Shown: positions 7,397-27,340, numbered from the stretch's first letter. The stretch: DNA of 32,000 bases from Thermofilum adornatum (GCF_000446015.1 NC_022093.1:1718260-1750259), one strand, 5' to 3'. The notes: generated by a model from the letters alone, not told the origin. Numbers and translations are program-made.

Positions 7397-7397
7397 C

Positions 7398-11581: not shown

Positions 11582-11600
11582 ACGGTTGTAATAATAATTT

Positions 11601-11625
11601 CTTATTCAATAAAAAAAGGGTTAAC
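11601..11625 (-). promoter_or_regulatory. GGTTAAC half-site plus TATA-like box upstream of the second binding-protein gene
   Basis: The minus strand reads GAAATAGTAGTTAACC-c-TTTTTTTATTGAATAAG and ends about 20 nt before the ATG at 11581. Confidence 0.4.
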
Positions 11626-11651
11626 TACTATTTCTGGGCTCTATCTGCCTT

Positions 11652-12668
11652 TTATATCCAGCGGAAGATTGCGCTTGCCATGACGAAGCCTACTCCAGAA
11701 GTGATGAACTGTATGTAGTCTCCCTTCTTAATCTTGCCCTGTGTTAGAGTATCGTGTAGAGCCATGAATACGCAGGCAGATCCAGTGTATCCATATTTCT
11801 CCATGATGGTTGGGGCCTTCTCGATTGGCTGTCCAAGTAGCCTCATCAGCTGGTGGATCATCTCTCTGTTTACCTGTGTGACGAAGTAGTAGCTTATGTC
11901 GTTGGCTGTTAAATTTGCCTTTTTCTGTACCTCTTGTGCGAGTCCTGGCCAGTGGCGAAGGTTTATGTCGGGTGGATACCTTTTAAGGTACCTCAGCTTG
12001 TGCCATCCCTCCTTTACGACGTTCTCGTTTACTGGTCTTGCACCCCCTATGTATATGCCCCAGTAGTCTGTATAACTACCATCCGCAATTATTTTTCCAG
12101 TAATGTAGCCAGGTTCACTTGATGGGCCAAGAATGACGGCTCCAGCTCCGTCAGAGAAAATGGAGGCAGTCACGTCTTGTGGGTCAATAAATTTGGTCAT
12201 CGTGTAAGGTGAAACTACCAAGACATAGTTGACGTCTTCGTTGAGCATGATGTTCTGTGCCGCAAGCATGAGGGCTATTGTGTTGTCTGCACAGGCCGCG
12301 TTTATGTCGAAGCCTCCCGTTTTTAGTTTTGCGCCTAGCTTCTGGTGAACTGCACAAACTGTTGGTGGGGTCTGGAAGTCTGGGGTATCTGTTGCGAATA
12401 TGATAAGGTCGATATCGTCTATAGTGAGGTTGGCGTTTTGAAGAGCCATTCTAGCGGCTTCTGCGGCTAGATCCGAGGGGGCCTGGTCTGGCGCAGAGAC
12501 GTATCGGTGTTTGATGCCTATGCGGTTTTCTAGTGCATTTCTCCATGCATCGGGGAGCTTGAGACCAAAGAACTTTTCATAGTCATCGTTAGTTACTAGT
12601 GTTTTTCCAAGGGCTATGCCCGTGCTCACTATCCTGGCATATTTTTTTATTTCAGGCTTCGTAGCCAT
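11652..12668 (-). CDS. Beta-ketoacyl synthase III (FabH)-like thiolase-fold protein with a non-canonical active site
   Basis: It is collinear with FabH throughout. The nucleophile motif FDINAACADN is conserved. The positions matching the FabH HQAN and GNTSAAS motifs read TQVN and GYTGSAC. The ATG at 12668 is the second codon of the ORF-track model. Confidence 0.85.
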   Translation of the reverse strand: MATKPEIKKYARIVSTGIALGKTLVTNDDYEKFFGLKLPDAWRNALENRIGIKHRYVSAPDQAPSDLAAEAARMALQNANLTIDDIDLIIFATDTPDFQTPPTVCAVHQKLGAKLKTGGFDINAACADNTIALMLAAQNIMLNEDVNYVLVVSPYTMTKFIDPQDVTASIFSDGAGAVILGPSSEPGYITGKIIADGSYTDYWGIYIGGARPVNENVVKEGWHKLRYLKRYPPDINLRHWPGLAQEVQKKANLTANDISYYFVTQVNREMIHQLMRLLGQPIEKAPTIMEKYGYTGSACVFMALHDTLTQGKIKKGDYIQFITSGVGFVMASAIFRWI

Positions 12669-12688
12669 CAAAATACTCTGGGAAAAAT

Positions 12689-12711
12689 CCTATAAAATAA
12701 AAACGGTTAAC
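12689..12711 (-). promoter_or_regulatory. GGTTAAC half-site plus TATA-like box upstream of the KAS III-like gene
   Basis: The minus strand reads GAAATAGTTAACC-g-TTTTTATTTTATAGG, about 20 nt upstream of the ATG at 12668. Confidence 0.4.
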
Positions 12712-12724
12712 TATTTCCCGAAAC

Positions 12725-13954
12725 CTAAAAGATGCTTTCGATCTTTCTCTTGAGCTTCCAGCCTTTAAGCAACCATGTACCGTATATACCGTAAGGTAAT
12801 GCCAGGACAACTATTATGTAGAGGAGTCCGAGAATAAAGCTGGGGAAGAGTTGCAGTTGTTGGAGTGACAGGAAGCCTAGTGATATGAGTGCTGGAGTTA
12901 TCGTTGAAAGGTAGTCTCTAAGGAAGCCAGCAAGGATACCGCCAATAGCTGGTCCAACGAATGTGCCGAGACCACCCAGTATAGCACCAGTCATGGCAAT
13001 GAAGGTCTTATCGGTTGCGAAGACGTCTGGCTGGATTGTAGGTATGCAGGCGACGTACACGCTTCCGGCTACCCCTGCAAAGACGCCTGAAATAAAGAAA
13101 GCTATTAACTGGTGGAGAAAAACGTTGTAGCCTATAACAGATGCCCTTACCGGATTCTCCCTTATTGCTATAAATGTGCTTCCCAGAGGGGATGTGATGA
13201 TTCTCTTAATCAACAGATATGATATGTAGAGGCTAAGGAGAGAGACTAGGTACACGTTAAGAGGATATACAAATCGCAGGATTCTTACATAAGGAAGACC
13301 TGAACCTACTTCATGGAGGAATGTTGCCGAGGAGCTAAAGATTACGTACCCACTATAACCTAAGAAGATAAAGAGCAATAAGACAATCAGTGTTTTGAGA
13401 ACTTTCTGGCGTTTCCGCTTTGTGCTAATGATGTCTATCATCCCGGTCACAAGTGATAGAGCAAGAAATATTGTGAAGAGGGCGAGGTAGAGGTACAGCC
13501 CTTCAAGTGAAGCCATCTCAGGTATCGTACCTACCGTCACAGCAACAGTGGTTTGGGCAGAGTACTCAATAGTAGCTCTAATGGCTTCCGAAATAGCAAG
13601 CGTTAAGATACCATAGTACAGTCCCCTAACACGGTAGCCGGGAAGACCCATGCCGACATAAACAGCTCCCGAAATAAGTGCGGCGGGAATAAGAGATAGA
13701 AGGAACGGGACACCCTGCTTGAGAAGCACCGCCGTAATAAAGGCAGCAACACCGAATGGAACTGCGTGCCCGAAGCTTGGGATTCCCGCGAAACCCAAAA
13801 CTATGTTGTAGCTTAGTGCAAGTAGAGCCCATACAAATGTCAGGGGAATGCCTGTAGCCAGTGACCTGTCTAGCCATGGAATGGCAAGGAGTATTGTTAA
13901 GGACAAGTATCCAAGAAACCTATTAGGCAACAAGTAGTTCCTTAGTTTCTCCAT
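12725..13954 (-). CDS. livM: HAAT-family ABC transporter permease, LivM-type (enlarged, 409 aa)
   Basis: Polytopic protein. Motifs: YNIVLGFAGIPSFGHAVPFGVAAF and SPLGSTFIAIRENPVRASVIGYN. Confidence 0.85.
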   Translation of the reverse strand: MEKLRNYLLPNRFLGYLSLTILLAIPWLDRSLATGIPLTFVWALLALSYNIVLGFAGIPSFGHAVPFGVAAFITAVLLKQGVPFLLSLIPAALISGAVYVGMGLPGYRVRGLYYGILTLAISEAIRATIEYSAQTTVAVTVGTIPEMASLEGLYLYLALFTIFLALSLVTGMIDIISTKRKRQKVLKTLIVLLLFIFLGYSGYVIFSSSATFLHEVGSGLPYVRILRFVYPLNVYLVSLLSLYISYLLIKRIITSPLGSTFIAIRENPVRASVIGYNVFLHQLIAFFISGVFAGVAGSVYVACIPTIQPDVFATDKTFIAMTGAILGGLGTFVGPAIGGILAGFLRDYLSTITPALISLGFLSLQQLQLFPSFILGLLYIIVVLALPYGIYGTWLLKGWKLKRKIESIF

Positions 13955-13958
13955 TTTC

Positions 13959-14831
13959 TCACCTCTTGAATAATCCTTCTGGTTTAACCACTAGGACAAC
14001 TATCATGACTATGAGATCTATCGCAAAGCCCAGTTGGGGTATAAAGTAGGCTACAAGCCTGTCGACAAATCCTATCAGTAGACTCGCATAGAAGGCTCCC
14101 GAATAACTTTTCATGCCTCCTACCACGGGGATAGCGAATGCTAGAAGTGAAAAGTGGACAGGGAGCTCTATGGTTGCATGCGTCAGTGGAGCAACTAGTG
14201 CGCCACCCAGTAGTGCCAGGGCGACGCCAAATGTAAATGCAGACGTGAAGAGCATCGAGATATCTACACCGAAGACTGTAGCGAGCTCTCGGTTCTCTGT
14301 CCCCGCCCTAAGCTTTATACCAATCATGGTTTTTGAAAGAAGTGTACTCATGGTGCCGAATAGGACAAATCCAATCGCTATAAGAACAAACTTATAGATC
14401 CTTATCCTGACATCTGCTAGCTGTATATATCCTGACAACAAGAAGTTTTGAGTCTCCGGAAATACGAGCCCTGTTGGCCATATTAGTTGCATAAAGGTAT
14501 ACAATAGAGTCATTAGTCCCATGGTAAGTAGTAATTGTGCTAATGGATTCCCGTATACCGGCCGTATTATTGCTCTCTCGGTTAGAAGACCAAGGACTAT
14601 CCCTATAAGAAAAGTTAACAATAGGCTCAACAGGAAGTTATTCGTCATGTAATAAAACGTCACAAAGAGATATGCTCCTAGTCCAAAAAAGGCGCCCTGT
14701 GCTAGGTTAAAGACATCCATTAAGCCAAAAATAATCACAAGTCCTATGGCTGCAAGGTAGATCATTGATGAATAAGTCAACCCGTCTATAACTGCGCTTA
14801 GAATCAATTCAGGTGAAACCATATCCACCAC
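13959..14831 (-). CDS. livH: HAAT-family ABC transporter permease, LivH-type
   Basis: Motifs: AAIGLVIIFGLMDVFNLAQGAFFGLGAYL and MIGIKLRAGTENRELATVFGVD. Confidence 0.85.
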   Translation of the reverse strand: MVDMVSPELILSAVIDGLTYSSMIYLAAIGLVIIFGLMDVFNLAQGAFFGLGAYLFVTFYYMTNNFLLSLLLTFLIGIVLGLLTERAIIRPVYGNPLAQLLLTMGLMTLLYTFMQLIWPTGLVFPETQNFLLSGYIQLADVRIRIYKFVLIAIGFVLFGTMSTLLSKTMIGIKLRAGTENRELATVFGVDISMLFTSAFTFGVALALLGGALVAPLTHATIELPVHFSLLAFAIPVVGGMKSYSGAFYASLLIGFVDRLVAYFIPQLGFAIDLIVMIVVLVVKPEGLFKR

Positions 14832-15551
14832 CTATAAGCTTACACCCAGGATTCTCCTTATTACATGATTGTTTTCTTCTATTTTTTCCGAGGGAAAACC
14901 TGTCACCACAACACCTTTATCCATCAGGTAAATGTAATCTGTTATTTCGCGGGCGTAAGCAAAGTTCTGTTCAATCAATAGTATTGTCTTCTTATTTTCA
15001 AGCATGTAGTGCCTCAGCTGCCTGTAGAAGTTTTTAACATAAGCTGGGCTTAGACCCTCAGATGGCTCATCTAGTATGAGAAGATCATGCTCCCTTACCA
15101 GTCCACATGCAAGTGCAAGCATTCTTTGCTGACCGCCGCTAAGTTCTCCTGCTAGGAGGCCAGAGAACCGTTTAAGCTCTGGGAAAAGATTCATTACCAT
15201 TTCAAGCTTGTCGTCGAATTTTTCCTTTGGGCCATTATAGGCTAGCTTAAGGTTCTCAATGACGGTAAGGTTTGCAAATACATTTTTCTCTGCTGGGACA
15301 AAACTTATTCCCCTCTTGACTATGCTATGCGTTGGGAAATTAGTGATGTTCTCTCCTTTGAAAAACACTTCTCCCCTAGCTGCCTTATATATTCCCATTA
15401 TTGTTTTTAGAGTTGTTGTTTTTCCCACGCCATTTCTACCTAGAATGGCCGTGAGCTTGTATTCTTCCGCTTCGAAGTTTACTCCTTGAAGTATATGGAA
15501 GCCGCCTATATATGCATGAAGATCCTTTACTTTCAGAATTGGAGACGCCAC
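14832..15551 (-). CDS. livF: HAAT-family ABC transporter ATP-binding protein, LivF-type
   Basis: Walker A GRNGVGKTT, GISFVPAEKNVFANLTVIENL, signature LSGGQQRMLALACGL and Walker B LLILDEPSEGL. The ORF extends to 15593. A GTG at 15551, one nt after the upstream stop, is the more economical start. Confidence 0.85.
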   Translation of the reverse strand: MASPILKVKDLHAYIGGFHILQGVNFEAEEYKLTAILGRNGVGKTTTLKTIMGIYKAARGEVFFKGENITNFPTHSIVKRGISFVPAEKNVFANLTVIENLKLAYNGPKEKFDDKLEMVMNLFPELKRFSGLLAGELSGGQQRMLALACGLVREHDLLILDEPSEGLSPAYVKNFYRQLRHYMLENKKTILLIEQNFAYAREITDYIYLMDKGVVVTGFPSEKIEENNHVIRRILGVSL

Positions 15552-15552
15552 A

Positions 15553-16305
15553 TCATTCACCCAGGTAGATTTTCTGAACCTCCCTATTCTCAACTATCTC
15601 TTTGGGAGACCCTTCCGCGAGAATACTTCCCTGATTCATTACGCTGACTTTGTCTGCTACTTCGAGAACAACATCTATTTTGTGCTCGATCACTACAACT
15701 GTTTTCTTCATTTCGTCTCTCAGCTTTTTAATGAGACGTACAATTGGTGCTACCTCCTCTAGAGATACGCCGGCCGTGGGCTCATCTAATGCTATGAGCT
15801 TTGGGTTTCCAGCAAGGGCAATAGCGATTTCTAGTTTCCGTTTGTCGCCTGGGGTGAGGCTACTTGCCAAAATGTTTGTCTTGCCGTAGAGGCCAGTTAT
15901 GGAGGCAATCCGCATGGCTTCCCAGACAACATCTTTGTAATGGCTTGTTGGATGAATGAAGTCCCATCTCACGTTTTTCCATTTTGCTTGGACAGCAAGC
16001 CTTATGTTTTCGAGAACAGTAAGGTTTGGGAAAATCGAATATATTTGGAAAGACCTTGTTAGACCCAGGGAGCTAATGTAGTGAGGGGGTTTACCAGTTA
16101 TATCTCTGTCCTCAAAATACACTTTACCACTTGTAGGTTTGAGGACTCCAGTAATCAAGTTAAATAGCGTTGTTTTCCCAGCACCGTTGGGACCTATTAT
16201 AGCATGAACCGTGCCCTGCGCCACCTTCAGGTTAACATTGCTGACAGCTACGAGTCCACCGAAGCTCTTTGTGAGATTTTCTGTGCGTAGAATTATGCCT
16301 GACAT
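15553..16305 (-). CDS. livG: HAAT-family ABC transporter ATP-binding protein, LivG-type
   Basis: Walker A GPNGAGKTT, LTRSFQIYSIFPNLTVLENI and Walker B LIALDEPTAGV. Confidence 0.9.
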   Translation of the reverse strand: MSGIILRTENLTKSFGGLVAVSNVNLKVAQGTVHAIIGPNGAGKTTLFNLITGVLKPTSGKVYFEDRDITGKPPHYISSLGLTRSFQIYSIFPNLTVLENIRLAVQAKWKNVRWDFIHPTSHYKDVVWEAMRIASITGLYGKTNILASSLTPGDKRKLEIAIALAGNPKLIALDEPTAGVSLEEVAPIVRLIKKLRDEMKKTVVVIEHKIDVVLEVADKVSVMNQGSILAEGSPKEIVENREVQKIYLGE

Positions 16306-16306
16306 G

Positions 16307-17086
16307 TTAGATGCCCCTGAAAAATTCTAGCAATAATTGGTTGTATTCTTCGGGTCTTTCCCTGTGGGGCATGTGTCCTACGCCTTTCATTATGTGCGCC
16401 TTTGAGGTAGGCACCATGGCGTGCATTTCTTCGACGACCTCTGGTGGGGATATGTAGTCTAGCTCTCCAGAAATGAAGAGAACAGGGTTCCTAAGTGATC
16501 TGATTATGTCTCTGTAGCTTTTTTCTGTCGCAGCTTCAGCGCTCTGTATGTAGACACGTTTATCAGTTCGTGAGATTATCTCATAGATTTCTCGTTTTAA
16601 TTCGGTAGATGCGTATGGCGACACAGCGAACTCAGCTACTTGGCTGGCTATTTCATGCATAGACATGTTTTCAAGAACTTCTGTCATTGCTGGTGGGTAT
16701 TCAGGTGCAATGGCTTCGAGGACAATCTTCTCAAATCTTTGTAGATACAAGCGGTAAAGCTCTAGCAGGACTAGGCCGCCCATTGAGTAGCCTACCATGA
16801 GCGCTTTCTCTATCTTTTCGGCTTCGAGGACGCTTTCTACGTCTCTAGCAAAATCCTCCATTGATATCCTTTTTGGGGGAATCTGGCTTTCGCCGTGCCC
16901 GCGAAGGTCTAGTGCTAATACCCTGTACCCCCTAGCTGGGAAGAACTCTAACTGGGGTTTCCATGTAAGATGGCTTTCGCCCAAGCCGTGTACGAAGATT
17001 ATTGGTGTTCCATTTCCTTCAGCAACATAGTGTATCTTTATACCGTCTTTTGATTTTGCATACCTGTGCTCTAATCCCTGCGACAT
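16307..17086 (-). CDS. Alpha/beta-fold hydrolase (esterase / C-C hydrolase-like)
   Basis: HG oxyanion motif IFVHGLGES, nucleophile elbow GYSMGG and a C-terminal His region GVGHMPHRERPEE. Confidence 0.85.
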   Translation of the reverse strand: MSQGLEHRYAKSKDGIKIHYVAEGNGTPIIFVHGLGESHLTWKPQLEFFPARGYRVLALDLRGHGESQIPPKRISMEDFARDVESVLEAEKIEKALMVGYSMGGLVLLELYRLYLQRFEKIVLEAIAPEYPPAMTEVLENMSMHEIASQVAEFAVSPYASTELKREIYEIISRTDKRVYIQSAEAATEKSYRDIIRSLRNPVLFISGELDYISPPEVVEEMHAMVPTSKAHIMKGVGHMPHRERPEEYNQLLLEFFRGI

Positions 17087-17088
17087 TT

Positions 17089-17886
17089 TTATTTCACCTC
17101 TCCCTTAAGAAAATTCGACACCAGTACATTAATTTCGCCCGGTTTTTCCCAAATAGAGACATGCCCACTTTCAACTTCAGCATATTTTCCATTGGGAAGC
17201 TCCTCAACTATCAACTTGGAGTATCTAGGCGGGAAGAATCTGTCATGAGTGCTGGCAACAACAAGAGTTGGCATTGTTAGTTTGGAGAGCTTTCCCCTCA
17301 GATCGAGCCTAAGAAAAGCTTTAATCATCTCTTCGAATGCTACCATGTCTACAAGCTCGAAGTTAGGTGCCAAAGAAGAAATAAAGGAGAAACTGTTATT
17401 GATGAACTCGTCTGAGAATATGTCCGGAATCATTACTTGCCACAGGAATCTACCTGACTTAAGCCGTGCCGCCAAAATCCACCTGTCGGCACGCAGTCTC
17501 AAGGCCTTGTCTACGGTGTGCGACGAATTTAGAATTACGAGTTTTTCGACTTGCTCGGAGAAGGCTAGCGCAGTAGCCAATGCTACTTTTCCGCCATAAG
17601 AGATGCCTGCAAGCGTAAAAGTGTTAATGCCCAAGTAATCTAACAGTTCCTTCAAGTCAGAAACATGTCTATCAATACTATAACCTGTCCTCGGCTTATC
17701 ACTTTGTCCCTGACCACGCATATCATGTAGAACTACCTTATAGCCTAGGTTCCTCAGATATTCTGCTTGAAGCCTCCATCCTACAGTATTCATCGTTATG
17801 CCATTGAGTAGCACTACCGTCTTTTCCCCTTCACCTTCGACCTCGTAATAGATCTTTATACCGTCCGTTGTAGTGAAATACGCCAT
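17089..17886 (-). CDS. Alpha/beta-fold hydrolase, second paralogous-type copy
   Basis: VVLLNGITMN, nucleophile elbow GISYGG and a C-terminal His region ESGHVSIWEKP. It sits 2 nt from the downstream hydrolase gene. Confidence 0.85.
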   Translation of the reverse strand: MAYFTTTDGIKIYYEVEGEGEKTVVLLNGITMNTVGWRLQAEYLRNLGYKVVLHDMRGQGQSDKPRTGYSIDRHVSDLKELLDYLGINTFTLAGISYGGKVALATALAFSEQVEKLVILNSSHTVDKALRLRADRWILAARLKSGRFLWQVMIPDIFSDEFINNSFSFISSLAPNFELVDMVAFEEMIKAFLRLDLRGKLSKLTMPTLVVASTHDRFFPPRYSKLIVEELPNGKYAEVESGHVSIWEKPGEINVLVSNFLKGEVK

Positions 17887-17891
17887 GGATC

Positions 17892-19463
17892 CTACACCTC
17901 TAACTTGTCTTCAGGTTTTCCATAAAGGATTTTAAGAGGCTGGCGAGCCACCTTCCCAGTCTCCGTGTAGACAAGTTGGGGAACAACTTCTACATACTTT
18001 GGTATTTTGTATTTCGCGAGCTTGTCTTTCAAGAAATCTATGACTTCTTCTTTCGTTATCTTTTCTCCCTCCTTAAGTACAATCAATGCCTTTGGAACCT
18101 CCCCCCACTTGGGGTCAGGGACTCCTATAACCACTGCATCCTTAATCTTTGGATGCATAATCAAAAGCCTCTCAATTTCTTCTGGATACACGCTCTCTTC
18201 ACCACTCCTAATGATGTTCTTAATTCTCCCAGCTATCCAGAAATAGCCTTCCTCATCTACCCTAGCAACGTCTCCCGTAGCCAGCCATCCATCCTTTATA
18301 ATAGACTTCATCTCTTCCTCGTTTTTCAGGTATCCTGAAAACACGCTTGGACCCCTTAGGTACAGCTCGCCCTCAACACCTCTGGGAGCCTCACTTCCAT
18401 CTGGAAGAACAACCCTGGCCTCTATCAATAGGTTCGGTTTCCCAATCGACCCCATTTTCCTCTTAGCGTCCCATGGATCGAGAGCAAAAATACCTGGACC
18501 CATCTCGGTCATCCCAAAACCTTGTTTCTGGACAACACCCTTCTCAAATATTTTCTCGATGATGTCTGGCGTTAACGCTCCCCCGCCGCTTGTAAACCAC
18601 CTAACGGATGAAAAGTCTGCGTCCTTGAAACGGGGCGAAGCAAGCAACATCCTAAGTTGCGTCGGAACCAGGAAGAGAAATGTTGGTCTCTCCTCTTCTA
18701 CGAGGTCAATAAACCTATCAACATTCCATCTTCGCATTAGAATACTTGTCCCTCCAAACATTAATAGAGGGATTAGATATGTGAAGGCACCAATGTGGAA
18801 GAGAGGTAACGTGTTGATTGTGACGTCGCCAGGTATAACCAAGTCCCTAACAGTGTTCAAGGCGTTCCAGAGAATCATCCTGTGACTTACTATTGTAAAT
18901 TTTGGCTTTCCAGTTGTTCCACCAGTTTGTAGTATTAGGGCGGGGTCTTCGAGGCAACACGCCGTCGAGACATCATTGGAAGAGTATTTCTCATAATTAA
19001 ACTCGTTTGGACAGTCATAGCACACTTTCTTCGTCTCTATGTTAGAGACGGTTTCTGAAAATTCTTTTTCATATAGGAGAACTTTTGGATTGACTTTATC
19101 AACAAACTCTTGAATTTCACGTGAAGTGTACCTCGTGTTTATAGGAGCTAGGACACAGCCAATCTTGAAACATGCAAGAAGCGTGGCAACAAACTCTATG
19201 CGGCTCCACGAAAGAATAGCTACATAATCTCCCTTGCTTATTCCGAAATTTTCCCGAAGAAAATTAGCAATCTTGTTGGACATCTCGTTTAGCTGTGCAA
19301 AGGACACCGTACGTAAGGGTATCGTTAGGTCGTCCTTGAGTGCTATCCAATTACCACTTATATCTGCTCTACGAGCTATCCAGTTGTTGACCCATTTTCC
19401 ACACGTATAGATTCTCTCCAGAGACATATAATGCATGTTAATAGGTGAAATCGTGTTATACAT
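17892..19463 (-). CDS. AMP-dependent acyl-CoA synthetase/ligase (ANL superfamily)
   Basis: Core motifs: LQTGGTTGKPK, GFGMTE, GWLATGDVARVDEEGYFWIAGRIKNIIRSGEESVYPEEIE and a C-terminal TETGKV. Alternative ATG starts at 19436 and 19427 would leave the palindrome at 19467..19485 further upstream. Confidence 0.9.
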   Translation of the reverse strand: MYNTISPINMHYMSLERIYTCGKWVNNWIARRADISGNWIALKDDLTIPLRTVSFAQLNEMSNKIANFLRENFGISKGDYVAILSWSRIEFVATLLACFKIGCVLAPINTRYTSREIQEFVDKVNPKVLLYEKEFSETVSNIETKKVCYDCPNEFNYEKYSSNDVSTACCLEDPALILQTGGTTGKPKFTIVSHRMILWNALNTVRDLVIPGDVTINTLPLFHIGAFTYLIPLLMFGGTSILMRRWNVDRFIDLVEEERPTFLFLVPTQLRMLLASPRFKDADFSSVRWFTSGGGALTPDIIEKIFEKGVVQKQGFGMTEMGPGIFALDPWDAKRKMGSIGKPNLLIEARVVLPDGSEAPRGVEGELYLRGPSVFSGYLKNEEEMKSIIKDGWLATGDVARVDEEGYFWIAGRIKNIIRSGEESVYPEEIERLLIMHPKIKDAVVIGVPDPKWGEVPKALIVLKEGEKITKEEVIDFLKDKLAKYKIPKYVEVVPQLVYTETGKVARQPLKILYGKPEDKLEV

Positions 19464-19466
19464 TTT

Positions 19467-19485
19467 AGGTTAACATTGTTAACCT
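19467..19485. promoter_or_regulatory. Inverted repeat AGGTTAAC-ATT-GTTAACCT (candidate operator)
   Basis: The 8-bp arms are perfect. It lies 4 nt upstream of the longest-ORF ATG of the acyl-CoA synthetase, inside the 194-nt divergent region shared with the HTH regulator gene. Confidence 0.5.
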
Positions 19486-20392: not shown

Positions 20393-20396
20393 ATAA

Positions 20397-20410
20397 TTTT
20401 TTTATTTTTT
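20397..20410 (+). terminator. T7-A-T6 tract 4 nt after the regulator stop codon
   Basis: The plus strand reads TAA-ATAA-TTTTTTT-A-TTTTTT. Confidence 0.5.
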
Positions 20411-20412
20411 CT

Positions 20413-21387
20413 CTAAGCCAGTGGAGATGCAATAGTGGTTCCTAGGTCTATGGGTATCACTATTCCTGTGAGTGCCTCGTTTTCCACCACGTGGTATGCC
20501 AATTTAGCAATTTCTTCCGGCTCGACGAGTCTCGCTATTGGAATCCTCCTTAAGTATTCTTGGAGGATCGGTGAAGGCACTGCGAGAGCCATCCTAGTCT
20601 TGGCGAATCCTGGAGCTATAGCTACGACTCTGATACCGTAGGGGGCAAGCTCCTTTGCAAGCGTCTTAGTGAGACCTATGAGTCCCGCCTTAGAAGCCGC
20701 ATAATTTGCCTGGGCAATGTTTCCAAGCAATCCTACAATTGACGAAATATTGATGATTACTCCCCCGCCGTTCCTTTTCATTATTGGGAAAACAGCTTTT
20801 GAGCATAGGAAAGCTCCCTTTAGATTCACATTTAATACGCTGTCCCAGTCTTCGTCCTTCATTCTCTCTAGATAAGTGTCACGTGTTATGCCAGCATTGT
20901 TTACCAATACATCGATCCGGCCGGCCAGCCGTAAAGCCTCTGATATGCCCTTAGAAACACTCTCACTCTTGCTGACGTCCATCTCTACGAAGTATGCCTC
21001 TACACCTAGGTTCTTTATAGCTTCGAGAGTTTTTTCTGCTTCCTGATCTCTCACTATATCCGCAATGACGACGTTGTAACCGTGCCGAGCAAACTCTAGT
21101 GATATTGCCGCTCCTATGCCTCTGCTTCCCCCGGTAACAAGGACGACTTTTCTTGGCTGATCGACACGCGGGATAAATACTGGGATTTTGCCGAAGACTG
21201 TCAATTCTTCTGTGAGTTCTCCTTCAGCTCCCTCCTTTACAAGCCCCATGTATTTTTGAGGTATTCTCGCGATTCTTTTTTCTCCATTTCCATTCTCAAC
21301 TATGGCGACGATGTACGTAGACTTGTAGGGCTCTACAGGGGTCAGCAATTCGGTAAATATTCTTACTTTCCACGCCATTCCCTTCAC
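20413..21387 (-). CDS. Fusion protein: N-terminal DUF35-type OB-fold domain plus short-chain dehydrogenase/reductase (FabG-like 3-oxoacyl reductase)
   Basis: SDR part: VVLVTGGSRGIGAAI (TGxxxGxG), LVNNAGI, ISSIVG and the catalytic YAASKAG (YxxxK). The N-terminal ~75 aa (AWKVRIFTELLTPVEPYKSTYIVAIVENGNGEKRIARIP...VKEGAEGEL) match the DUF35 OB-fold pattern by eye, and no zinc ribbon is present. The GTG start overlaps the thiolase TGA (GTGA). The SDR call is confident; the DUF35 call is moderate. Confidence 0.8.
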   Translation of the reverse strand: MKGMAWKVRIFTELLTPVEPYKSTYIVAIVENGNGEKRIARIPQKYMGLVKEGAEGELTEELTVFGKIPVFIPRVDQPRKVVLVTGGSRGIGAAISLEFARHGYNVVIADIVRDQEAEKTLEAIKNLGVEAYFVEMDVSKSESVSKGISEALRLAGRIDVLVNNAGITRDTYLERMKDEDWDSVLNVNLKGAFLCSKAVFPIMKRNGGGVIINISSIVGLLGNIAQANYAASKAGLIGLTKTLAKELAPYGIRVVAIAPGFAKTRMALAVPSPILQEYLRRIPIARLVEPEEIAKLAYHVVENEALTGIVIPIDLGTTIASPLA

Positions 21388-22559
21388 CTCTCAAAAACGA
21401 TAACTACTGAAGTTGCCCCAGTCCCACCATGATTCTCAACTAAGCCTCTTTCTGCATCTTTCACTTGCCTGGCCCCGGCCTCACCCCTTAGCTGCCAGTA
21501 TACCTCTGCGACCATGCCTACACCCGTTGCACCAATGGGGTGTCCCTTAGCCTTCAACCCACCACTTGGGTTTACTGGCTTAGATCCTGTGAATGCTGTT
21601 ACCCCGTCCCTAATCAGCTTGTAGCCTTCGCCTCTCTGTGCAAGCCCAAGCATCTCGTAGAGAATTATCTCAGCGATTGTAAAGGCGTCGTGGACTTCGA
21701 AAAGGTCTATCTTTTCTGGGCCATATCCACTCATCTTGTAAGCTTCTTGGGCGGCTTGCCTGGCCGCCTCGATAGCTGACATGTCTTTTCTTTGGTAGAC
21801 CCCTGAATAATCATGCTTCATAGCTATGCCGCTGATGTAGACGGGTGTATCAGTATACTTTTTAGGCTCCGAGCTCATGAGAAGGGCTACGGCCCCATCG
21901 GAGAGTGGCGAGGCATCAAATAGTTTTAGGGGCGGTGATATGTATGGAGACTTCAAGACGTCTTCAACTGTGATCTTCTTCTGAAACTGGGCGAGCGGGT
22001 TTCTTGTAGCGTTTTCATGGTTCTTTACGGCGACCAAGGCTAGGTCCTCTTCCTTTGCCCCGTAGCGGTTCATGTATTCTCTAGCTATTAAAGCATAGAG
22101 GCTTAGAAATGGAGCCCCCACTTTGTACTCTTCTGGCGCACTTGTACGCATCAAGATCTCATTCGACTTTGCAGACGTCCCCACAGTGCTCATTTTTTCA
22201 AAGCCAACAATCAGGGCGTTTTTAAAGAAGCCAGCACTGAGAAGCTTGTGTGCAAGATAAACAGCTGTTGTACCAGCTGCACAGGCATTTTCAACCCTGA
22301 AGCCCGTAGCGTTTAGGTTCCCAATGTAGCTTGCTACAAGGGGGGCTGTATGCAGTAAGCCCCCGAAGGAGTCACTGTAGTTGGAGACTATGATTAGGTC
22401 TATTTCCTGCGGAGAAATCCCCTTCTCAACGCTTTTCAGGGCTCCCTCGACAGCTTCACGTATCATTTCGTGTGTCTCCTTTTGACTCCTGGCCTCATAC
22501 TTTGTGCTATAGGCTCCTACAACGCCTATTCTACCGTTTTGGGGCGTTAGTGTCACCAA
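21384..22559 (-). CDS. Thiolase-fold acetyl-CoA C-acyltransferase (archaeal / SCP-x-type thiolase)
   Basis: Nucleophile region FRVENACAAGTTAV and C-terminal NPSGGLKAKGHPIGATGVGM and ENHGGTGATSVV. 391 aa. Starts with TTG or GTG. Confidence 0.9.
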   Translation of the reverse strand: MVTLTPQNGRIGVVGAYSTKYEARSQKETHEMIREAVEGALKSVEKGISPQEIDLIIVSNYSDSFGGLLHTAPLVASYIGNLNATGFRVENACAAGTTAVYLAHKLLSAGFFKNALIVGFEKMSTVGTSAKSNEILMRTSAPEEYKVGAPFLSLYALIAREYMNRYGAKEEDLALVAVKNHENATRNPLAQFQKKITVEDVLKSPYISPPLKLFDASPLSDGAVALLMSSEPKKYTDTPVYISGIAMKHDYSGVYQRKDMSAIEAARQAAQEAYKMSGYGPEKIDLFEVHDAFTIAEIILYEMLGLAQRGEGYKLIRDGVTAFTGSKPVNPSGGLKAKGHPIGATGVGMVAEVYWQLRGEAGARQVKDAERGLVENHGGTGATSVVIVFER

Positions 22560-22592
22560 ATAGGAAATTTCAACACTTGCCTAAAAGCGGAG

Positions 22593-22610
22593 AGGTTAAC
22601 ATTGTTACCT
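22593..22610. promoter_or_regulatory. Near-copy of the 19467 palindrome: AGGTTAACATTGTTACCT
   Basis: It is identical to the 19467..19485 element except for one missing A in the right arm. It lies 34-51 nt upstream of the thiolase start in a 69-nt intergenic region. Confidence 0.5.
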
Positions 22611-22628
22611 AGATAGAAATAGAAAAAA

Positions 22629-23243
22629 TTAGAAGCCCAGGTCGCTTAGCCAGAGGGTGTATACATCTGAATCAGCCACTATTTCTCCTGGAAGAACGCC
22701 GTACCAGTTTTGCGGCAACCAGTAGTACGCGTCGATATCGACGCCTGTCGTAGCCTTGTATGCCGCCCAGACAAGCTCAGAGCAGTAATAGGATGGGCCA
22801 TATACTTGTTTGTAGTATCCGTTATAGTCGTATGTATAGCCAAGCTTGGAGTACGCCCAGTTGGCGGCACTTAGGGCTTGTGAGTCTGTCACGCCTTTGA
22901 CCCTCAGAATTATGACAGCACTATAACGGGACATGAATTCGCTTAGAGTGTTTATTCTTACACCCTCGAATAGTGCCTCTACAACCAGCCAGTCGCCAAT
23001 TGTTGGATCATATTTGTATAAAATGCCCGCATGGGACCAGTAGCCCACTATGGTATATTCCTGTCCAGGGTAATGACCAATTACGATGTCGCCTGGTCTA
23101 AGCGAGACGTTTGGATAGGGGTGCACGAAGTAGCCGTATGGGTGATAACTGTCGCTCGAGGAAGCCTGGAGCACAGGCATAGTAAAAGCCAGGAAAAACA
23201 GTAGCATGAAAAATGGTGCTGTGAATTGTTTCTTTTTTATCAT
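22629..23243 (-). CDS. Secreted permuted-papain-fold (NlpC/P60 superfamily, YiiX/YaeF-like) amidase/peptidase
   Basis: It has an N-terminal signal peptide (FFMLLFFLAFTMPVLQASS). It also shows the YiiX-like motif order PGDIVIG ... WSHAGILY ... VVEALFEGVRINTLSEF ... ILRV ... LGYTYDY ... YYCSELVWAAY. Confidence 0.6.
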   Translation of the reverse strand: MIKKKQFTAPFFMLLFFLAFTMPVLQASSSDSYHPYGYFVHPYPNVSLRPGDIVIGHYPGQEYTIVGYWSHAGILYKYDPTIGDWLVVEALFEGVRINTLSEFMSRYSAVIILRVKGVTDSQALSAANWAYSKLGYTYDYNGYYKQVYGPSYYCSELVWAAYKATTGVDIDAYYWLPQNWYGVLPGEIVADSDVYTLWLSDLGF

Positions 23244-23287
23244 TTGTCGATCAATATCTAGCCTTTTAAGATAAATAAAAGCATGTT

Positions 23288-23295
23288 GGTTAACC
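23288..23295. promoter_or_regulatory. GGTTAACC palindrome between divergent promoters
   Basis: It lies in the 98-nt divergent intergenic region. On the plus strand it is followed directly by TATATTAC. On the minus strand it is followed after 7 nt by TTTTATTTATC. Confidence 0.4.
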
Positions 23296-23341
23296 TATAT
23301 TACAAAGCAAATAAAAATGTTATCCCAAATAACTTAAACTG

Positions 23342-25111
23342 ATGAGCAAAGAAAAACCTAAACTAGACAAAAAGCTGTTAGCCGCAGTAATACTTCTCGT
23401 CCTCTCAGCCCTGCTAGCCTTATCGGGCTCTTTCACCGCTAAGACACTACTCTACCAAGGCGTCCAGACAGAAGAAGTCTGGATAACGGGTCTCGACGGA
23501 GCCAAACTTAGGGCAGTGATCTATAAGCCTTCTAATGCTCAAGGGAAGCTACCAGCAGTCATTGTTGTCCACGGGCTAGGTGCCTCATCAGATACAATGA
23601 ATGCTATTTCCACGGAGCTTGCAAGAAACGGCATCCTAGTTTTATCACTGAACTATAGGGGACACGACGGTAGCGAGGGCGGGGTAAACTATATCGGCGA
23701 CCCAATAGCGGCGCCAAACATCTCAAACGACCTCTACGCTTCCCTAACTTACCTGCAGAGCAGGGCAGACGTTGACAAACAACATATAGGTGTCATAGGG
23801 TACTCGATGGGCTCTAGGGCGGCGTTAAGACTTGGAATCCTTGCTCCAAACATAAACCCCGTAGTGATGATTGGACCGTATTATGCATGGGAAATTAGCA
23901 CTGTAAACACAACGAGACCAAACAACCTCCTTATAATCGTGGGTGAAAATGACATTATTACTCCGCCGTCCTTTGCCGAGTTGCTCTTTAACTATGCAAC
24001 GAGTTCCTCTGGAAAGCCCTCTGAAGTCTTTGGTTCTCCAAGTGCAGGTACCGGCAGGAAACTTGTGATTGTTCCCGGAGCCGACCACTACACCATCGTT
24101 TTTACCAAAAAGGCTATAGAGGAGACAGTTGAATGGGTCCTACTCTGTTTTGGAAAGGGGAAAGCGACCTATTACTTGGATCCCTCTGTACTGGGCTCGC
24201 TCTCTGGCTCTGCTAGTTTCCTTTCGATAATAGCGGTTCTATGTGTTGCTTACCTAGTCACAAGGTACTATAGATCCAAAGGGAAAATTGTCCAGGTTGA
24301 ATCAAAATCGAGCATCCGCAGAACATTTGCTATAGTTCTCATCATTGTCTTGTCAATTCTGTACATTCTTGCCTCGTTCTATACTTTCCCATTGATAGTT
24401 GACTGGGGCTGGCGAGTATACCAGTTTGCAAGGTTCTCAGGAGCGCAGTATACCATCTTCTACTTCCTATTCCTTGCACTAGCCCTTTTACCCATAATCA
24501 TAGTCCTCGTGGCCATCAAGAGAGAGATTCTTGGTGATGCAGTTCAAAAACTAAAGAAGAACTGGATACCTGGTCTAGTAACGGTGCTCATTGCTTGGCT
24601 GACAGTATATATCATGTATAATATTTCGCTGACAGGTGTCGTAGCCAATTATGCTATGACACCCACTAGGTTCGCATTTATGTTCTACTTGTTTGCTCTT
24701 TGCCTGCTACCCATATTTGTCGACGAGTTCTACCTTAGAGAACTCATCCAAGACAAGATCCCAGTTAAAAAATGGTGGCTACAGCTCGGCATAACAATTA
24801 TACTCGAGTACATGTTGAGAGTCCTCCCATTTGCATGGTGGGTTGGACTAGTAGCCCAGCCACTTGTAGCCGAAGGTATATTGAAGCAATATGTCGCGGC
24901 AGGGCTAATTTCTCTAGAGAACCTTGACACAGTTAAGTCCTTCCTCGGCATGAACGCATACGGTCTATACTATGCCTTCATGAGTGTTGAAATGCTACAC
25001 GCGTTTGTCGCGAGCTATCTCTACAAGGAATATAGAAACATCGGCATCACGTCGATCTTTAGGGCCCTCACTGTTGCCTTCACGATGGCGGCCGTAATGG
25101 CTTTACTTTAA
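23342..25111 (+). CDS. Membrane-anchored alpha/beta hydrolase fused to a C-terminal polytopic membrane domain
   Basis: The N-terminus has a TM/signal segment and then a hydrolase core: VIVVHGLGASS, nucleophile elbow GYSMGS, GENDIITPP and GADHYT. From about residue 290 there are roughly 8 predicted hydrophobic helices. Confidence 0.75.
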   Translation: MSKEKPKLDKKLLAAVILLVLSALLALSGSFTAKTLLYQGVQTEEVWITGLDGAKLRAVIYKPSNAQGKLPAVIVVHGLGASSDTMNAISTELARNGILVLSLNYRGHDGSEGGVNYIGDPIAAPNISNDLYASLTYLQSRADVDKQHIGVIGYSMGSRAALRLGILAPNINPVVMIGPYYAWEISTVNTTRPNNLLIIVGENDIITPPSFAELLFNYATSSSGKPSEVFGSPSAGTGRKLVIVPGADHYTIVFTKKAIEETVEWVLLCFGKGKATYYLDPSVLGSLSGSASFLSIIAVLCVAYLVTRYYRSKGKIVQVESKSSIRRTFAIVLIIVLSILYILASFYTFPLIVDWGWRVYQFARFSGAQYTIFYFLFLALALLPIIIVLVAIKREILGDAVQKLKKNWIPGLVTVLIAWLTVYIMYNISLTGVVANYAMTPTRFAFMFYLFALCLLPIFVDEFYLRELIQDKIPVKKWWLQLGITIILEYMLRVLPFAWWVGLVAQPLVAEGILKQYVAAGLISLENLDTVKSFLGMNAYGLYYAFMSVEMLHAFVASYLYKEYRNIGITSIFRALTVAFTMAAVMALL

Positions 25112-25126
25112 AAAAATTTTATTTTT
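25110..25126. terminator. Bidirectional A7/T4-A-T5 tract between convergent genes
   Basis: The plus strand reads TAAAAAAATTTTATTTTT. This gives T-tracts after the plus-strand stop (25109-25111) and a T7 after the minus-strand ACD alpha stop (25119-25121). Confidence 0.45.
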
Positions 25127-26579
25127 CTCCTATTATCCTTGTCTCGACAAGTCTTTGAGACTTCCCATATAGCGTCTTTAGATAGGCTAGGCGCGCTTCT
25201 ACCACGCTTCTCCTCTTGCTGTAGAGATAGATTGCTGAAAGAGCTTCAGCTGCGCGTTCAGGCGTTGGGTATGCAGGTATACCTGCTCTATATAGATAGC
25301 TTATGGCTTCCTTTGACTCGGGTCCACCTACAAAGCCGGCTACAACAGGCTTCTTTATGTCTGTCTCTTGAACAGCTTTGATTATTGCCTCAGCCGTCTT
25401 CATCGGGTTTGTGGTCATAGTTTGACAGTATAATACAAGGATTGAGTGTATCTCTTCATGCTCCAGAGCCTTACGGAGTGCAAGGTAGTAGTATTCATCG
25501 CTCGCACCTCCAGTTATATCTACTGGGTTCCTCGTCGACGCAAAGGGCGGCAGGAATGTTCTTAGGTAGTCTACGTAATCCTTGGGGGGTTCGTTCAAGC
25601 GAATGCCCCTTTCAGCCAAGGTATCTGTGGCTTGTACACCTGCTCCCCCACCGTTCGTAATGACTAATACATTTGGACCAGGCAGCTTAATGTTTCGCTC
25701 AAAAATCCTAGCATAATCAAAAGCGGTCTGTACATCTTTGACTTGTAGTGCACCTACCTGTCTTAGGACTCCTTCCCACAATATTGGCCCGCTTGAAAGT
25801 GACCCTGTATGGCTAGCCGCTGCTTTTGCTCCAAACTCTGTTCTGCCTGCCTTGATAGTTATTATGGGCTTCCTGGCTGAGAATTCGCTTGCAATGTCTA
25901 GGAATTTTCTGCCGTCGCTGATTCCCTCTATATACATTATGACGGCCTGAGTGTTTGGGTCATTTAAAAAGAAAGACAAGAGATCAGCGTCGTCTATATC
26001 CGCCTTGTTACCTACACTTACGACGCTTGAGACTCCTATCTCCTCGACAATTGAGTAGCCCATCAAGGCTATGCCTAGGGCTCCGCTCTGAGTTATAAAG
26101 GCAATATTGCCCGGCAGAAGGTTTGGCGGACCAAAGGACGCGTTGAGTTTTGCCGGCGTGTAGACGTATCCAAAGATGTTTGGACCAAGAACCCTCATAC
26201 CATTTTTCCTAGCCACTTGGACGAGTCTCTCCTCTAGCTCTTTGTTGCCCACCTCCTTGAAGCCAGAACTTAGGACCACCAGGAACTGCGCACCGGCTCG
26301 GCCAGCGTCCTCGGCTACCTCTATTGTCTTGTCGGCGGGAACCGAGACTATAACAACGTCTACCTCTCCATTAATGCTTGAAACGCTAGGATAGCATGGC
26401 AAGCCCAGTACGCTTTCAGCCGTCGGATTCACCGGGTAAACCCTTCCCTTATAGCCGCCATCCAAGATGTTCTTAAGAACAATGTGTCCAATCTTTGATG
26501 GATTCTTGGATGCGCCTACTATCGCTATTCCCCTAGGATAAAATAACCTGTAAAGCTCACTCTCCACGTGTATCACCAA
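25119..26579 (-). CDS. acdA: ADP-forming acetyl/acyl-CoA synthetase (ACD), alpha subunit
   Basis: CoA-binding N-terminus PRGIAIVGASKNPSKIGHIVLKNIL..GYKGRVYPVNP, SCS-like ITQSGALG and a phospho-His region AAASHTGSL. 486 aa. Confidence 0.9.
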   Translation of the reverse strand: MVIHVESELYRLFYPRGIAIVGASKNPSKIGHIVLKNILDGGYKGRVYPVNPTAESVLGLPCYPSVSSINGEVDVVIVSVPADKTIEVAEDAGRAGAQFLVVLSSGFKEVGNKELEERLVQVARKNGMRVLGPNIFGYVYTPAKLNASFGPPNLLPGNIAFITQSGALGIALMGYSIVEEIGVSSVVSVGNKADIDDADLLSFFLNDPNTQAVIMYIEGISDGRKFLDIASEFSARKPIITIKAGRTEFGAKAAASHTGSLSSGPILWEGVLRQVGALQVKDVQTAFDYARIFERNIKLPGPNVLVITNGGGAGVQATDTLAERGIRLNEPPKDYVDYLRTFLPPFASTRNPVDITGGASDEYYYLALRKALEHEEIHSILVLYCQTMTTNPMKTAEAIIKAVQETDIKKPVVAGFVGGPESKEAISYLYRAGIPAYPTPERAAEALSAIYLYSKRRSVVEARLAYLKTLYGKSQRLVETRIIGEK

Positions 26580-27276
26580 GAATAAACCTTACATCTGCAA
26601 CTTTTGCTCCTCTCCCCCTCTCATATACTAATAGAGGATTGATGTCTATCTCTGCAACTTCATCAAGTTGAGTAATCATCTCCGAGACCTTCATTAAAAC
26701 GTCGACAACTGCCTCCTCATCTAGGGGACCCATCCCCCTAAAGCCCCCAAAGAGGACATATCCCTTAAGGTCTCTGAGCATATCGTAGGCATCGGGAGGA
26801 GTGAGCGGCGCCACCCGGAAACTAACGTCTTTTAAGACTTCTACGAAAATGCCTCCTACACCAATCATCACTATTGGGCCAAAAAACGGGTCTCTCGAGG
26901 CGCCCACAATCATTTCGAGACCTCTCGGGAGCATTTCTTCTACAAGGATGCCGGTGACTCTTGCATTAGGAGCCCTCAGCATGACGCTACGTGTAATAGT
27001 AATGTATTTTTCACGTGCCTCATCAGGAGTTTTCACGTCTAAAGCGACGCCCCCGACATCAGACTTGTGGACAATATCTGGGCTAATGACCTTCATTACT
27101 ACGGGGAAACCTATCTTCGTTGCCACCTCTACAGCCTCTTTACTATTTGTTGCTACACCGTACCTTGGCACCGGCAACCCATAGTGTTCACAGAGCATTA
27201 GCGCCTCGTGTTCCAGTAGCTTTTTCCTGCCTTCTCTCCTCGCCTCTTCAAAAAGCAATTGAGGCGTAGTTGCCAA
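26557..27276 (-). CDS. acdB: ADP-forming acetyl/acyl-CoA synthetase (ACD), beta subunit (ATP-grasp)
   Basis: LLEHEALMLCEHYGLPVPRYGVA...EAVEVATKIGFPVVMKVISPDIVHKSDVGGVALDV is the typical ACD beta ATP-grasp. TTG start. It overlaps the alpha subunit gene by 23 nt. Confidence 0.9.
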   Translation of the reverse strand: MATTPQLLFEEARREGRKKLLEHEALMLCEHYGLPVPRYGVATNSKEAVEVATKIGFPVVMKVISPDIVHKSDVGGVALDVKTPDEAREKYITITRSVMLRAPNARVTGILVEEMLPRGLEMIVGASRDPFFGPIVMIGVGGIFVEVLKDVSFRVAPLTPPDAYDMLRDLKGYVLFGGFRGMGPLDEEAVVDVLMKVSEMITQLDEVAEIDINPLLVYERGRGAKVADVRFILGDTRGE

Positions 27277-27321
27277 AGCAGATCCTTGAACATTCTCTTT
27301 GAAACATGTCTAAAAAAACAG

Positions 27322-27340
27322 TGGTTAACAATTATAACAA
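27322..27340. promoter_or_regulatory. Degenerate copy of the palindrome: TGGTTAACAATTATAACAA
   Basis: 14 of 19 positions match AGGTTAACAATGTTAACCT. It lies 46-64 nt upstream of the ACD beta start and, in the gene's sense, directly upstream of TTTTTTTAGAC. Confidence 0.4.

Follow-up and report, generated by a model that had tools for sequence, protein, structure and literature searches.

GTTAAC boxes as a candidate operator set for a fatty-acyl gene cluster and its HTH_10 regulator in Thermofilum adornatum

Results and discussion

We analysed a 32,000-nucleotide stretch of the genome of Thermofilum adornatum (family Thermofilaceae, Thermoproteota; NC_022093.1:1718260-1750259), referred to below as the window. 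It contains a 17-kb cluster of 15 genes (10052-27276) with predicted roles in fatty-acyl metabolism, in which seven promoters carry a box built on the sequence GTTAAC. This motif is real and far beyond chance. In our view, the boxes probably serve as the operator for a cluster-specific transcription factor, with an HTH_10 protein encoded within the cluster as the most likely binder and activation as the favoured mode of action. Judged from sequence, the system is very likely a local one-component regulator with its operator set, of a familiar kind and conserved across orders of the Thermoproteota.

The box is concentrated in intergenic DNA

A first-pass annotation of the window had reported the 7-mer GGTTAAC at seven loci, most of them non-coding, and had suggested that it marks a regulon of lipid-related promoters. 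On the plus strand we recovered the motif at 11619, 12705, 16230, 19468, 22594, 23288 and 27323, as reported. A further position given as 19479 was off by one, the minus-strand copies lying at 19478 and 23289. The total of nine on both strands, as compared with 3.8 +/- 2.2 expected, is an enrichment of only ~2.4-fold. The count is thus weak, but the location is decisive, because eight of the nine matches fall within the 7.5% of the window that is non-coding, a bias that the annotation had rightly noticed. In an unbiased k-mer count, GGTTAAC/GTTAACC was the most widespread intergenic 7-mer (6 of 19 segments), ahead of T- and A-runs. Dinucleotide shuffles of the intergenic DNA gave a mean of 0.28 segments with the motif and a maximum of 3 in 5000 shuffles (Poisson P ~5e-7). 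The one coding match, at 16230, had been counted with the others; it lacks conservation in relatives, and we put it down to chance.

Could the whole set be due to chance, or be a functionless leftover of promoter duplication? The modest whole-window count would suit the former, and the resemblance between the binding-protein and KASIII-like promoters around the box would suit the latter. Against both stand the intergenic enrichment, the invariance of the core amid diverged flanks in six promoter regions of eight lineages, and, in distant orders, a related dyad found at the orthologous place (see below). We attach practically no probability to this reading, which in our judgement the conservation data already refute. 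Two other readings were tried and rejected: avoidance of GTTAAC (the HpaI site) or restriction-modification, on a count of 11 GTTAAC in 32 kb against ~9 by a rough composition-based estimate, and a hairpin or terminator, as the binding-protein and KASIII-like sites have no palindromic second arm and all sites lie upstream of a TATA box.

The box is restricted to the promoters of the cluster

For its regulon idea, the first-pass annotation had proposed to look at how common the motif is upstream of unrelated genes and whether it is retained in orthologous promoters. The former was addressed in ~47 kb of T. adornatum, that is, the window plus 14.8 kb of flanking sequence. The box was present in 7 of 8 cluster promoters, while none of the 17 other promoters had an intergenic GTTAAC (Fisher P = 1.7e-5). 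The sole exception inside the cluster was the promoter of the regulator gene itself, which has no GTTAAC box in 8/8 Thermofilaceae lineages. Absence of the motif had already been reported for this promoter and for those of the first Liv operon, the dehydrogenase, TauE and the ferredoxin gene, and all of these were confirmed. The OFOR genes, named in the same list, lie mostly beyond the right end of the window; the flanking sequence that holds them is free of intergenic GTTAAC. The flanks of related loci, outside the cluster, also gave no intergenic GTTAAC. A telling case is that of the two paralogous Liv-type ABC operons (3912-8810 and 10052-16305), only the second of which has GTTAAC boxes. 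This argues that the second transporter is not an amino-acid importer.

Core, spacing and dyad layout are conserved in the Thermofilaceae

Retention in orthologous promoters was examined in T. adornatum and seven further lineages with the same gene order (loci L018, L021 from Infirmifilum, L024, L027, L028, L029 and L030), whose regulators are 65-83% identical. Loci L001-L003 and L031-L033 come from the same species (99.7-100% identical) and were left out of the footprint, L031 and L032 being used for flanking sequence. The GTTAAC core was kept in all six promoter regions across the 8 lineages, in 39 aligned promoter instances, while the surrounding intergenic sequence diverged (Table 1). Aligned on the core proximal to the TATA box, these 39 promoters had 1.7-2.0 bits in each of the six core columns and 1.3 bits in the C that follows. 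There came next seven low-information columns in which the fraction of purines was 0.2-0.4, then at +9..+13 after the core a TTTTA block of A/T only, and a start codon 35-48 nt downstream of the core. The spacer, at the position expected for the TFB-recognition element (BRE), was pyrimidine-rich in 5 of 6 Thermofilaceae promoter regions. On both counts, rarity elsewhere and retention in orthologues, the tests that could be run support the regulon idea at the level of sequence.

The annotation had also described an extension of the motif to an 18-19 bp palindrome at three sites. This is true of the AMP-ligase promoter, where the palindrome is perfect; that of the thiolase promoter is imperfect, and at the promoter of the ADP-forming acyl-CoA synthetase (ACD) the distal arm is weak. 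In the full dyad, GGTTAAC-A-N-T-GTTAACC, the two GTTAAC cores are 9 bp apart, centre to centre, the proximal unit being near-invariant and the distal one variable. Columns -9 (G) and -6/-5 (AA) hold ~1 bit even in promoters that seem to have a single unit. Every site is therefore likely to be a dyad whose TATA-proximal half is strong and whose distal half varies. The arrangement, (distal GTTAAC-like unit)-N3-GTTAAC-C-N7-TTTTA, is constant, and the motif matrix consensus can be written as GGTTAACANTGTTAACC in a C-N7-TATA context.

This layout bears on whether the box is a general promoter element, be it a variant form of the BRE or a sequence recognised by an alternative TFB paralogue. Its proximity to the TATA box and fixed orientation would fit such an element, and GTTAAC loosely resembles the crenarchaeal BRE consensus RNWAAW. 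A BRE, however, must abut the TATA box. The first-pass annotation had placed the motif at the BRE position, which does not hold: in the 39 aligned promoters a stretch of one BRE-length (C + 7 nt) intervenes between it and the TATA box downstream. The box is hence not a generic BRE, since a BRE-length spacer separates the two, and at the thiolase promoter this spacer is G+C-rich (TCTCCGC). Moreover, the box is often a dyad reaching ~25 nt upstream of the TATA box, and it is absent from the 17 other promoters of the ~47 kb, where A-rich or TAAC sequences directly abut the TATA boxes (for example agaaaATTTAAAT and gtaacTTTATTAT). We regard a general element as very improbable.

The cluster encodes a candidate binder of the HTH_10 family

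The protein encoded at 19658-20392 is 100% identical to a T. adornatum protein, which set aside an initial assignment of the window to Archaeoglobus. It matches HTH_10 (PF04967) at residues 174-225 with E = 5.3e-14 and 52.2 bits, above the Pfam threshold of 23.1. Its N-terminal part gave sub-threshold Pfam matches to HVO_2525_N (17.5 bits, cut-off 27, E = 0.005) and BAT (14.2 bits, E = 0.04), and PF24279 is listed for it in precomputed Pfam tables. An AlphaFold model made with 18 homologues (pLDDT 87) has beta-alpha-beta repeats followed by a helical DNA-binding domain. With Foldseek, the C-terminus matched the -35-binding (sigma-70 region-4-like) domain of a sigma factor (3hug); the best match of the N-terminus was Thermoplasma Ta1207 (5m86), with ACT/RAM-type domains ranked lower. 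A search for solved structures related by sequence found none. The protein had no match to the TetR family even at E <= 1, and the Pfam scan of genes in the window brought up no TetR gene.

The orthologous group is narrow: it falls into 41 clusters when grouped at 90% identity, and 8 representatives score at E <= 1e-30. All are unnamed and come from Thermofilaceae and from Desulfurococcales-type metagenome-assembled genomes (MAGs). A wider set of 244 archaeal proteins of the same length was obtained at E <= 1e-10, the nearest of which are from Archaeoglobales, Thermococcus and Thermoprotei MAGs and bear the UniRef label 'HTH bat-type domain-containing protein'. Literature searches returned no paper for 'HVO_2525' and surveys only for HTH_10. 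We know of no characterised member of the orthologous group.

The first-pass annotation had put this gene forward as the obvious candidate for binding the motif. The gene order of the relatives supports this proposal: in all Thermofilaceae loci the cluster keeps the HTH_10 gene, and no other gene for a DNA-binding protein is conserved in it.

A related dyad accompanies the regulator gene in distant orders

A scan of species genomes returned 14 loci, all from Desulfurococcales or 'Sulfolobales' MAGs, with regulators 36-43% identical and no Thermofilaceae among them. A metagenome scan added 22 loci of both Thermofilaceae-type and distant kinds. In the distant MAGs the genes for the Liv ABC transporter, KASIII-like protein, family III CoA-transferase, alpha/beta hydrolase, regulator, thiolase and SDR lie on one strand. 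The regulator gene, convergent with the thiolase gene in Thermofilaceae, is there directly upstream of the thiolase-SDR pair.

A related dyad was found 26-50 nt before the thiolase start in every distant locus containing that promoter, examples being AATAAACATTGTTTACC, TGTAAACATAGGTAACC, GGTAATCACAGGTAACC and GTTAAGCTCTGTTAACC. These dyads were first detected with the T. adornatum consensus alone at <=4 mismatches, for which chance gives ~1 match per 20 kb. A match within the same 60-nt promoter was obtained in 10 of 14 loci, representing at least 6 distinct sequences; by our own estimate the chance per locus is ~0.005. Further boxes occur in the distant loci upstream of CoA-transferase genes (for example AGTTATCAATGTTAACT in L004, GTTAACaaaaGCTAAA in L014 and L017) and of KASIII-like and hydrolase genes.

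The recognition helix reads SRVS(I/V)(I/V)KSLR in Thermofilaceae, SRAAVTKLLR in Zestosphaera-like lineages and SRVA(V/I)AK(T/I)LR in the rest, and the corresponding boxes are GTTAAC, GTTTAC/ATAAAC and G(G/A)TAAC/GTAA(A/T)C. For instance, the Zestosphaera-type helix SRAAVTKLLRRAE goes with the box AATAAACATTGTTTACC, and the Thermofilum-type helix SRVSIIKSLRKAE with GGTTAACAATGTTAACC. The parallel change of box and helix is suggestive, albeit confounded by phylogeny.

These data also bear on the possibility that the box is a true operator of the cluster bound by a transcription factor encoded elsewhere, the HTH_10 protein having a different role. In favour of this view, the regulator's own promoter has no box and the regulator is linked to the box by synteny only. 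On the other hand, the regulator gene stays in or beside the box-bearing cluster from Thermofilaceae to the Desulfurococcales/'Sulfolobales' MAGs despite rearrangement of the gene order, no other DNA-binding gene is conserved there, and the box variant tracks the recognition-helix variant. We consider a binder encoded elsewhere unlikely, and the local HTH_10 protein the better candidate.

The layout slightly favours activation over repression

What was observed is a motif that is enriched, conserved, phased and confined to the cluster, together with its conserved linkage to the regulator gene; from this we infer a binder, a ligand and a sign of regulation as follows. The HTH_10 regulator would bind the dyad as a dimer and, through its ACT/BAT-like N-terminal domain, respond to a ligand derived from lipids, for example acyl-CoA or a fatty acid. 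The proximal unit always faces the TATA-like box, GTTAAC-C being followed by seven mostly pyrimidine nucleotides at the expected place of the BRE and then by TTTTA. Activation would be ligand-dependent, the bound regulator helping TFB and TBP to bind.

Activation is given a slight preference over repression because of the fixed phasing upstream of the BRE and TATA box, the pyrimidine-rich BRE spacers and the lack of an autoregulatory site. Archaeal activators characteristically bind upstream of the BRE/TATA (PMC6737238). The alternative is that the same regulator acts at the same operator as a repressor, keeping TFB and TBP off until released by acyl-CoA or a fatty acid. We take this to be the main rival, a possible but less favoured mode of action. 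A repressor would not need all sites to lie upstream of the TATA box with one phasing in six promoter regions of 8 lineages, which is typical of activators (PMC6737238). Nor do the pyrimidine-rich BRE-position spacers of 5/6 promoter regions speak for a repressor, and the lack of a box at the regulator's own promoter in 8/8 lineages is unlike the autoregulated FadR_Sa.

Several points weigh against activation, or against the wider proposal. The precedent, FadR_Sa, represses a lipase/beta-oxidation cluster of 30 kb, and acyl-CoA releases it (PMC6449355). Between the end of the proximal unit and the TATA box there are 8 nt, so a dimer on the site might reach into the TFB footprint or block TFB. 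The spacer of the AMP-ligase promoter is A-rich and BRE-like, and the distant lineages have purine-rich spacers; the argument from a weak BRE hence covers only part of the promoters. At the hydrolase promoter the box has a TATA-like element right next to it, as would suit repression there. The TATA box, BRE and transcription start assignments are themselves sequence-based predictions. The link between regulator and motif is drawn from synteny and from lineage-correlated variation, which phylogeny alone could produce. Lastly, the promoter scan covered ~47 kb, and the seven boxed promoters are the regulon as seen in that stretch.

Regarding the hydrolase promoter, its side of the divergent region has a conserved TATAT (23296-23303, +) in immediate contact with the GGTTAACC box in 6/7 lineages. 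It could be the TATA box of the hydrolase gene, which would imply a different and possibly repressive geometry, or alternatively it could be a distal half-site for the amidase promoter.

A further-reaching version of the activation proposal is that the HTH_10 protein is a lipid- or acyl-CoA-sensing activator that recruits TFB and TBP from one BRE-length upstream of the TATA box, and that it governs an ancient, order-spanning regulon for lipid scavenging. We put this forward as a tentative idea, possible rather than likely.

The target genes point to the use of fatty-acyl compounds

Pfam matches agreed with the gene assignments of the first-pass annotation for the KASIII-like protein, binding protein, AMP-ligase, thiolase, C92/YiiX amidase, alpha/beta hydrolase, ADP-forming acyl-CoA synthetase and HTH_10 regulator. 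They also placed two Liv-type ABC operons in the window and two small alpha/beta hydrolases among the cluster genes. The predicted operators and targets are collected in Table 1. This gene set points to the uptake, de-esterification, CoA activation and conversion of fatty-acyl compounds. A thiolase and an SDR ketoacyl-CoA reductase are parts of the CoA-dependent fatty-acid synthesis pathway of Sulfolobus acidocaldarius (bioRxiv 10.1101/2024.07.05.601840). Thermofilum pendens reportedly depends for growth on a polar-lipid fraction from Thermoproteus tenax (PMC3772148), and a tie between this need and the regulon is speculative.

Table 1. Predicted operators, promoter elements, candidate regulator and predicted target genes, in window coordinates
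Feature	Coordinates	Strand	Sequence and context	Form kept in Thermofilaceae (lineages)
Operator (predicted), second Liv-type binding protein promoter	11619..11629	-	strong proximal unit with conserved 5' extension, sense AGTAGTTAACC; distal unit degenerate (G..AA); core 38-41 nt from ATG across 6 lineages	gtaGTTAACC (6/6)
Operator (predicted), KASIII-like gene promoter	12705..12713	-	strong proximal unit, sense TAGTTAACC; distal unit degenerate (GAAAC/GAAAT); core 37-44 nt from start codon across 6 lineages	taGTTAACC (6/6)
Dyad operator (predicted), AMP-ligase promoter	19467..19485		perfect 9-1-9 palindrome AGGTTAACATTGTTAACCT; promoter of seven-gene AMP-ligase/esterase/Liv-ABC operon; proximal core 41 nt upstream of ATG at 19427	GTTAAC-N3-GTTAAC (7/7; one base changed in L024 and L028)
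Dyad operator (predicted), thiolase promoter	22593..22610		imperfect palindrome AGGTTAACATTGTTACCT, sense strand AGGTAACAATGTTAACC; promoter of thiolase-SDR operon; proximal core 38 nt upstream of GTG at 22556	GG(T/C)(T/A)AC-A-N-(T/G)-GTTAAC (8/8; single-base variants in two)
8-bp palindrome, amidase/hydrolase divergent region	23288..23295		GGTTAACC; between C92/YiiX-like amidase (-) and 589-aa alpha/beta hydrolase (+); 45-47 nt from both start codons	GTTAAC (exact in 5/7; one-base variants in L024 and L030)
Operator (predicted), ACD promoter	27322..27340		TGGTTAACAATTATAACAA; strong proximal unit GTTAACC, weak distal unit GTTATA; promoter of ADP-forming acyl-CoA synthetase beta/alpha genes	proximal GTTAAC (6/6); distal GTTAT/GTTAC-like in most
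Phased TATA-like box, thiolase promoter	22579..22586	-	TTTTAGGC; C + 7 nt (TCTCCGC) from GTTAAC core	
Equivalent TATA-like boxes	~11604-11617, 12690-12703, 19453-19466, 23273-23280, 27308-27318			
Candidate binder, one-component regulator, 243/244 aa	19658..20392	+	ferredoxin-like (ACT/BAT-like) N-domain repeats, C-terminal HTH_10	
Predicted target with own box	10052-11581	-	Liv-type binding protein	
Predicted target with own box	11652-12668	-	KASIII-like gene	
Predicted target operon	12725..19427	-	AMP-dependent acyl-CoA ligase, two alpha/beta hydrolases, LivG/F ATPases, LivH/M permeases; small intergenic gaps	
Predicted target operon	20413..22556	-	thiolase (21384-22556), SDR ketoacyl reductase-like gene (20413-21378)	
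Predicted divergent targets	22629..25111		C92/YiiX-like amidase (22629-23243, -), 589-aa alpha/beta hydrolase (23342-25111, +)	
Predicted target operon	25119..27276	-	ADP-forming acyl-CoA synthetase beta (26557-27276) and alpha (25119-26567)	

Comparison with known archaeal regulators

To our knowledge, FadR of Sulfolobus, a TetR repressor, is the only known example of how Archaea regulate fatty-acid and lipid metabolism, and the bat-type HTH_10 regulators, although numerous in Archaea, are almost unstudied outside haloarchaea. FadR_Sa of S. acidocaldarius is an acyl-CoA-responsive TetR-family repressor of the saci_1103-1126 cluster for lipases, beta-oxidation and the synthesis of fatty acids (PMC6449355; bioRxiv 10.1101/2024.07.05.601840). 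The resemblance of the Thermofilum system to it is functional only: one local regulator gene within a 17-30 kb archaeal cluster of esterases/lipases, acyl-CoA synthetase, thiolase and SDR, dyad operators at several cluster promoters (here seven, predicted), and a plausible lipid-derived effector. In contrast, the Thermofilum regulator is an HTH_10/bat-type protein with an ACT/BAT-like N-domain and no TetR domain, and its predicted operator has another sequence. Its sites all share one position upstream of the BRE/TATA, whereas those of FadR_Sa include its own promoter and one within a coding sequence. We saw no sign of autoregulation in Thermofilum, and the sign of regulation is probably opposite.

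The Ara-box of Sulfolobales (AACATGTT), which operates with XylR, is a short palindromic box needed for promoter activation (PMC7264815). As in the Thermofilum cluster, it is a short palindromic box common to promoters of uptake (an ABC binding protein) and catabolism, with a regulator gene near the transporter genes; XylR is not detectably autoregulated at the transcriptional level, and the promoter of the Thermofilum regulator is box-less. The centre of the Thermofilum dyad, AACAATGTT, even resembles the Ara-box. The two differ in substrates, lipids or acyl-CoA as against pentoses, and the Thermofilum box is GTTAAC-based and usually doubled. The regulator profile search returned no Sulfolobus proteins, and so did not place XylR in the HTH_10 family.

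With the HTH_10 or 'HTH bat-type' family (PF04967), of which haloarchaeal Bat is the namesake, the regulator shares a C-terminal HTH_10 domain; its N-domain has weak, sub-threshold similarity to BAT and HVO_2525_N, which stand before HTH_10 in such proteins. It differs in lacking GAF and PAS domains and in its much smaller length (244 aa). Ptr2, TFB-RF1 and TK0271/Tar likewise have a palindromic site immediately upstream of the BRE/TATA and are proposed to recruit TBP or TFB (PMC6737238), but they belong to unrelated protein families, and in Thermofilum activation is only a prediction.

If the proposed activation is true, the Thermofilum protein would be the first activator described for fatty-acyl metabolism in Archaea, and outside haloarchaea no HTH_10 regulator would have been characterised before it. 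The module for scavenging exogenous lipids, through import, de-esterification and CoA activation, could then underlie the lipid dependence reported for T. pendens (PMC3772148). The system lends itself to a clean test, with a 17-bp operator that has a near-invariant half-site, seven identically phased promoters, a small soluble candidate regulator, and natural variants of operator and recognition helix available in other orders. From it one could learn how an archaeal factor bound beside the BRE controls TFB and TBP. The shared boxes also mark the second Liv-type ABC transporter, the esterases and the KASIII-like, thiolase and SDR enzymes as one physiological unit, which helps to assign functions in the proposed CoA-dependent fatty-acid pathways of Archaea.

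Other features of the locus

Besides the box, the thiolase promoter holds a 17-nt block, TTTAGGCAAGTGTTGAA (22569-22585, -), between its TATA-like box and the GTG start. The block occurs only once in the window and is almost invariant in 8/8 Thermofilaceae lineages and in further metagenome loci, while the other promoters have diverged at this place. A second operator over the transcription start is one possibility, a leader element another.

A variant dyad, GTAAAACATAGTTTACC (1759-1775, -), followed by N7 and TTATATTC, lies upstream of protoglobin-like and Roadblock/LC7 genes (1141-1662 region). It is ~96 nt from the called start, well beyond the 35-48 nt rule, and may be a weak or unrelated site.

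The gene content of the cluster varies among the Thermofilaceae. In the closest sister lineage (L018/L019, 15437-16736), the ACD genes are missing and an RHH/PIN toxin-antitoxin pair stands in their place, and in L018 one esterase gene is split into two open reading frames (ORFs; 7401-8233). Three lineages have an extra alpha/beta hydrolase gene between AMP-ligase and regulator (L021 8810-9865, L027 8824-9897, L028 8814-9845). In all three, its promoter has no GTTAAC box; therefore, the regulon does not include all lipid-type genes of the cluster.

The SDR (20413-21378, -) has a conserved N-terminal extension of ~80 aa without a Pfam match, its adh_short domain starting at residue 80-83, and the same extension is present in L017 (11961-12944) and L005 (11964-12944). 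In Sulfolobus, a separate DUF35 protein tethers the thiolase, and by analogy the extension might have a comparable tethering role.

Finally, outside the cluster, an amino-acid permease gene is split into an N-terminal ORF of 147 aa (29403-29846, +) and a C-terminal ORF of 291-315 aa in another frame (29789/29861-30736, +). The split is a probable frameshift or pseudogene, or possibly programmed; it is also called in other strains (L001 and L031).

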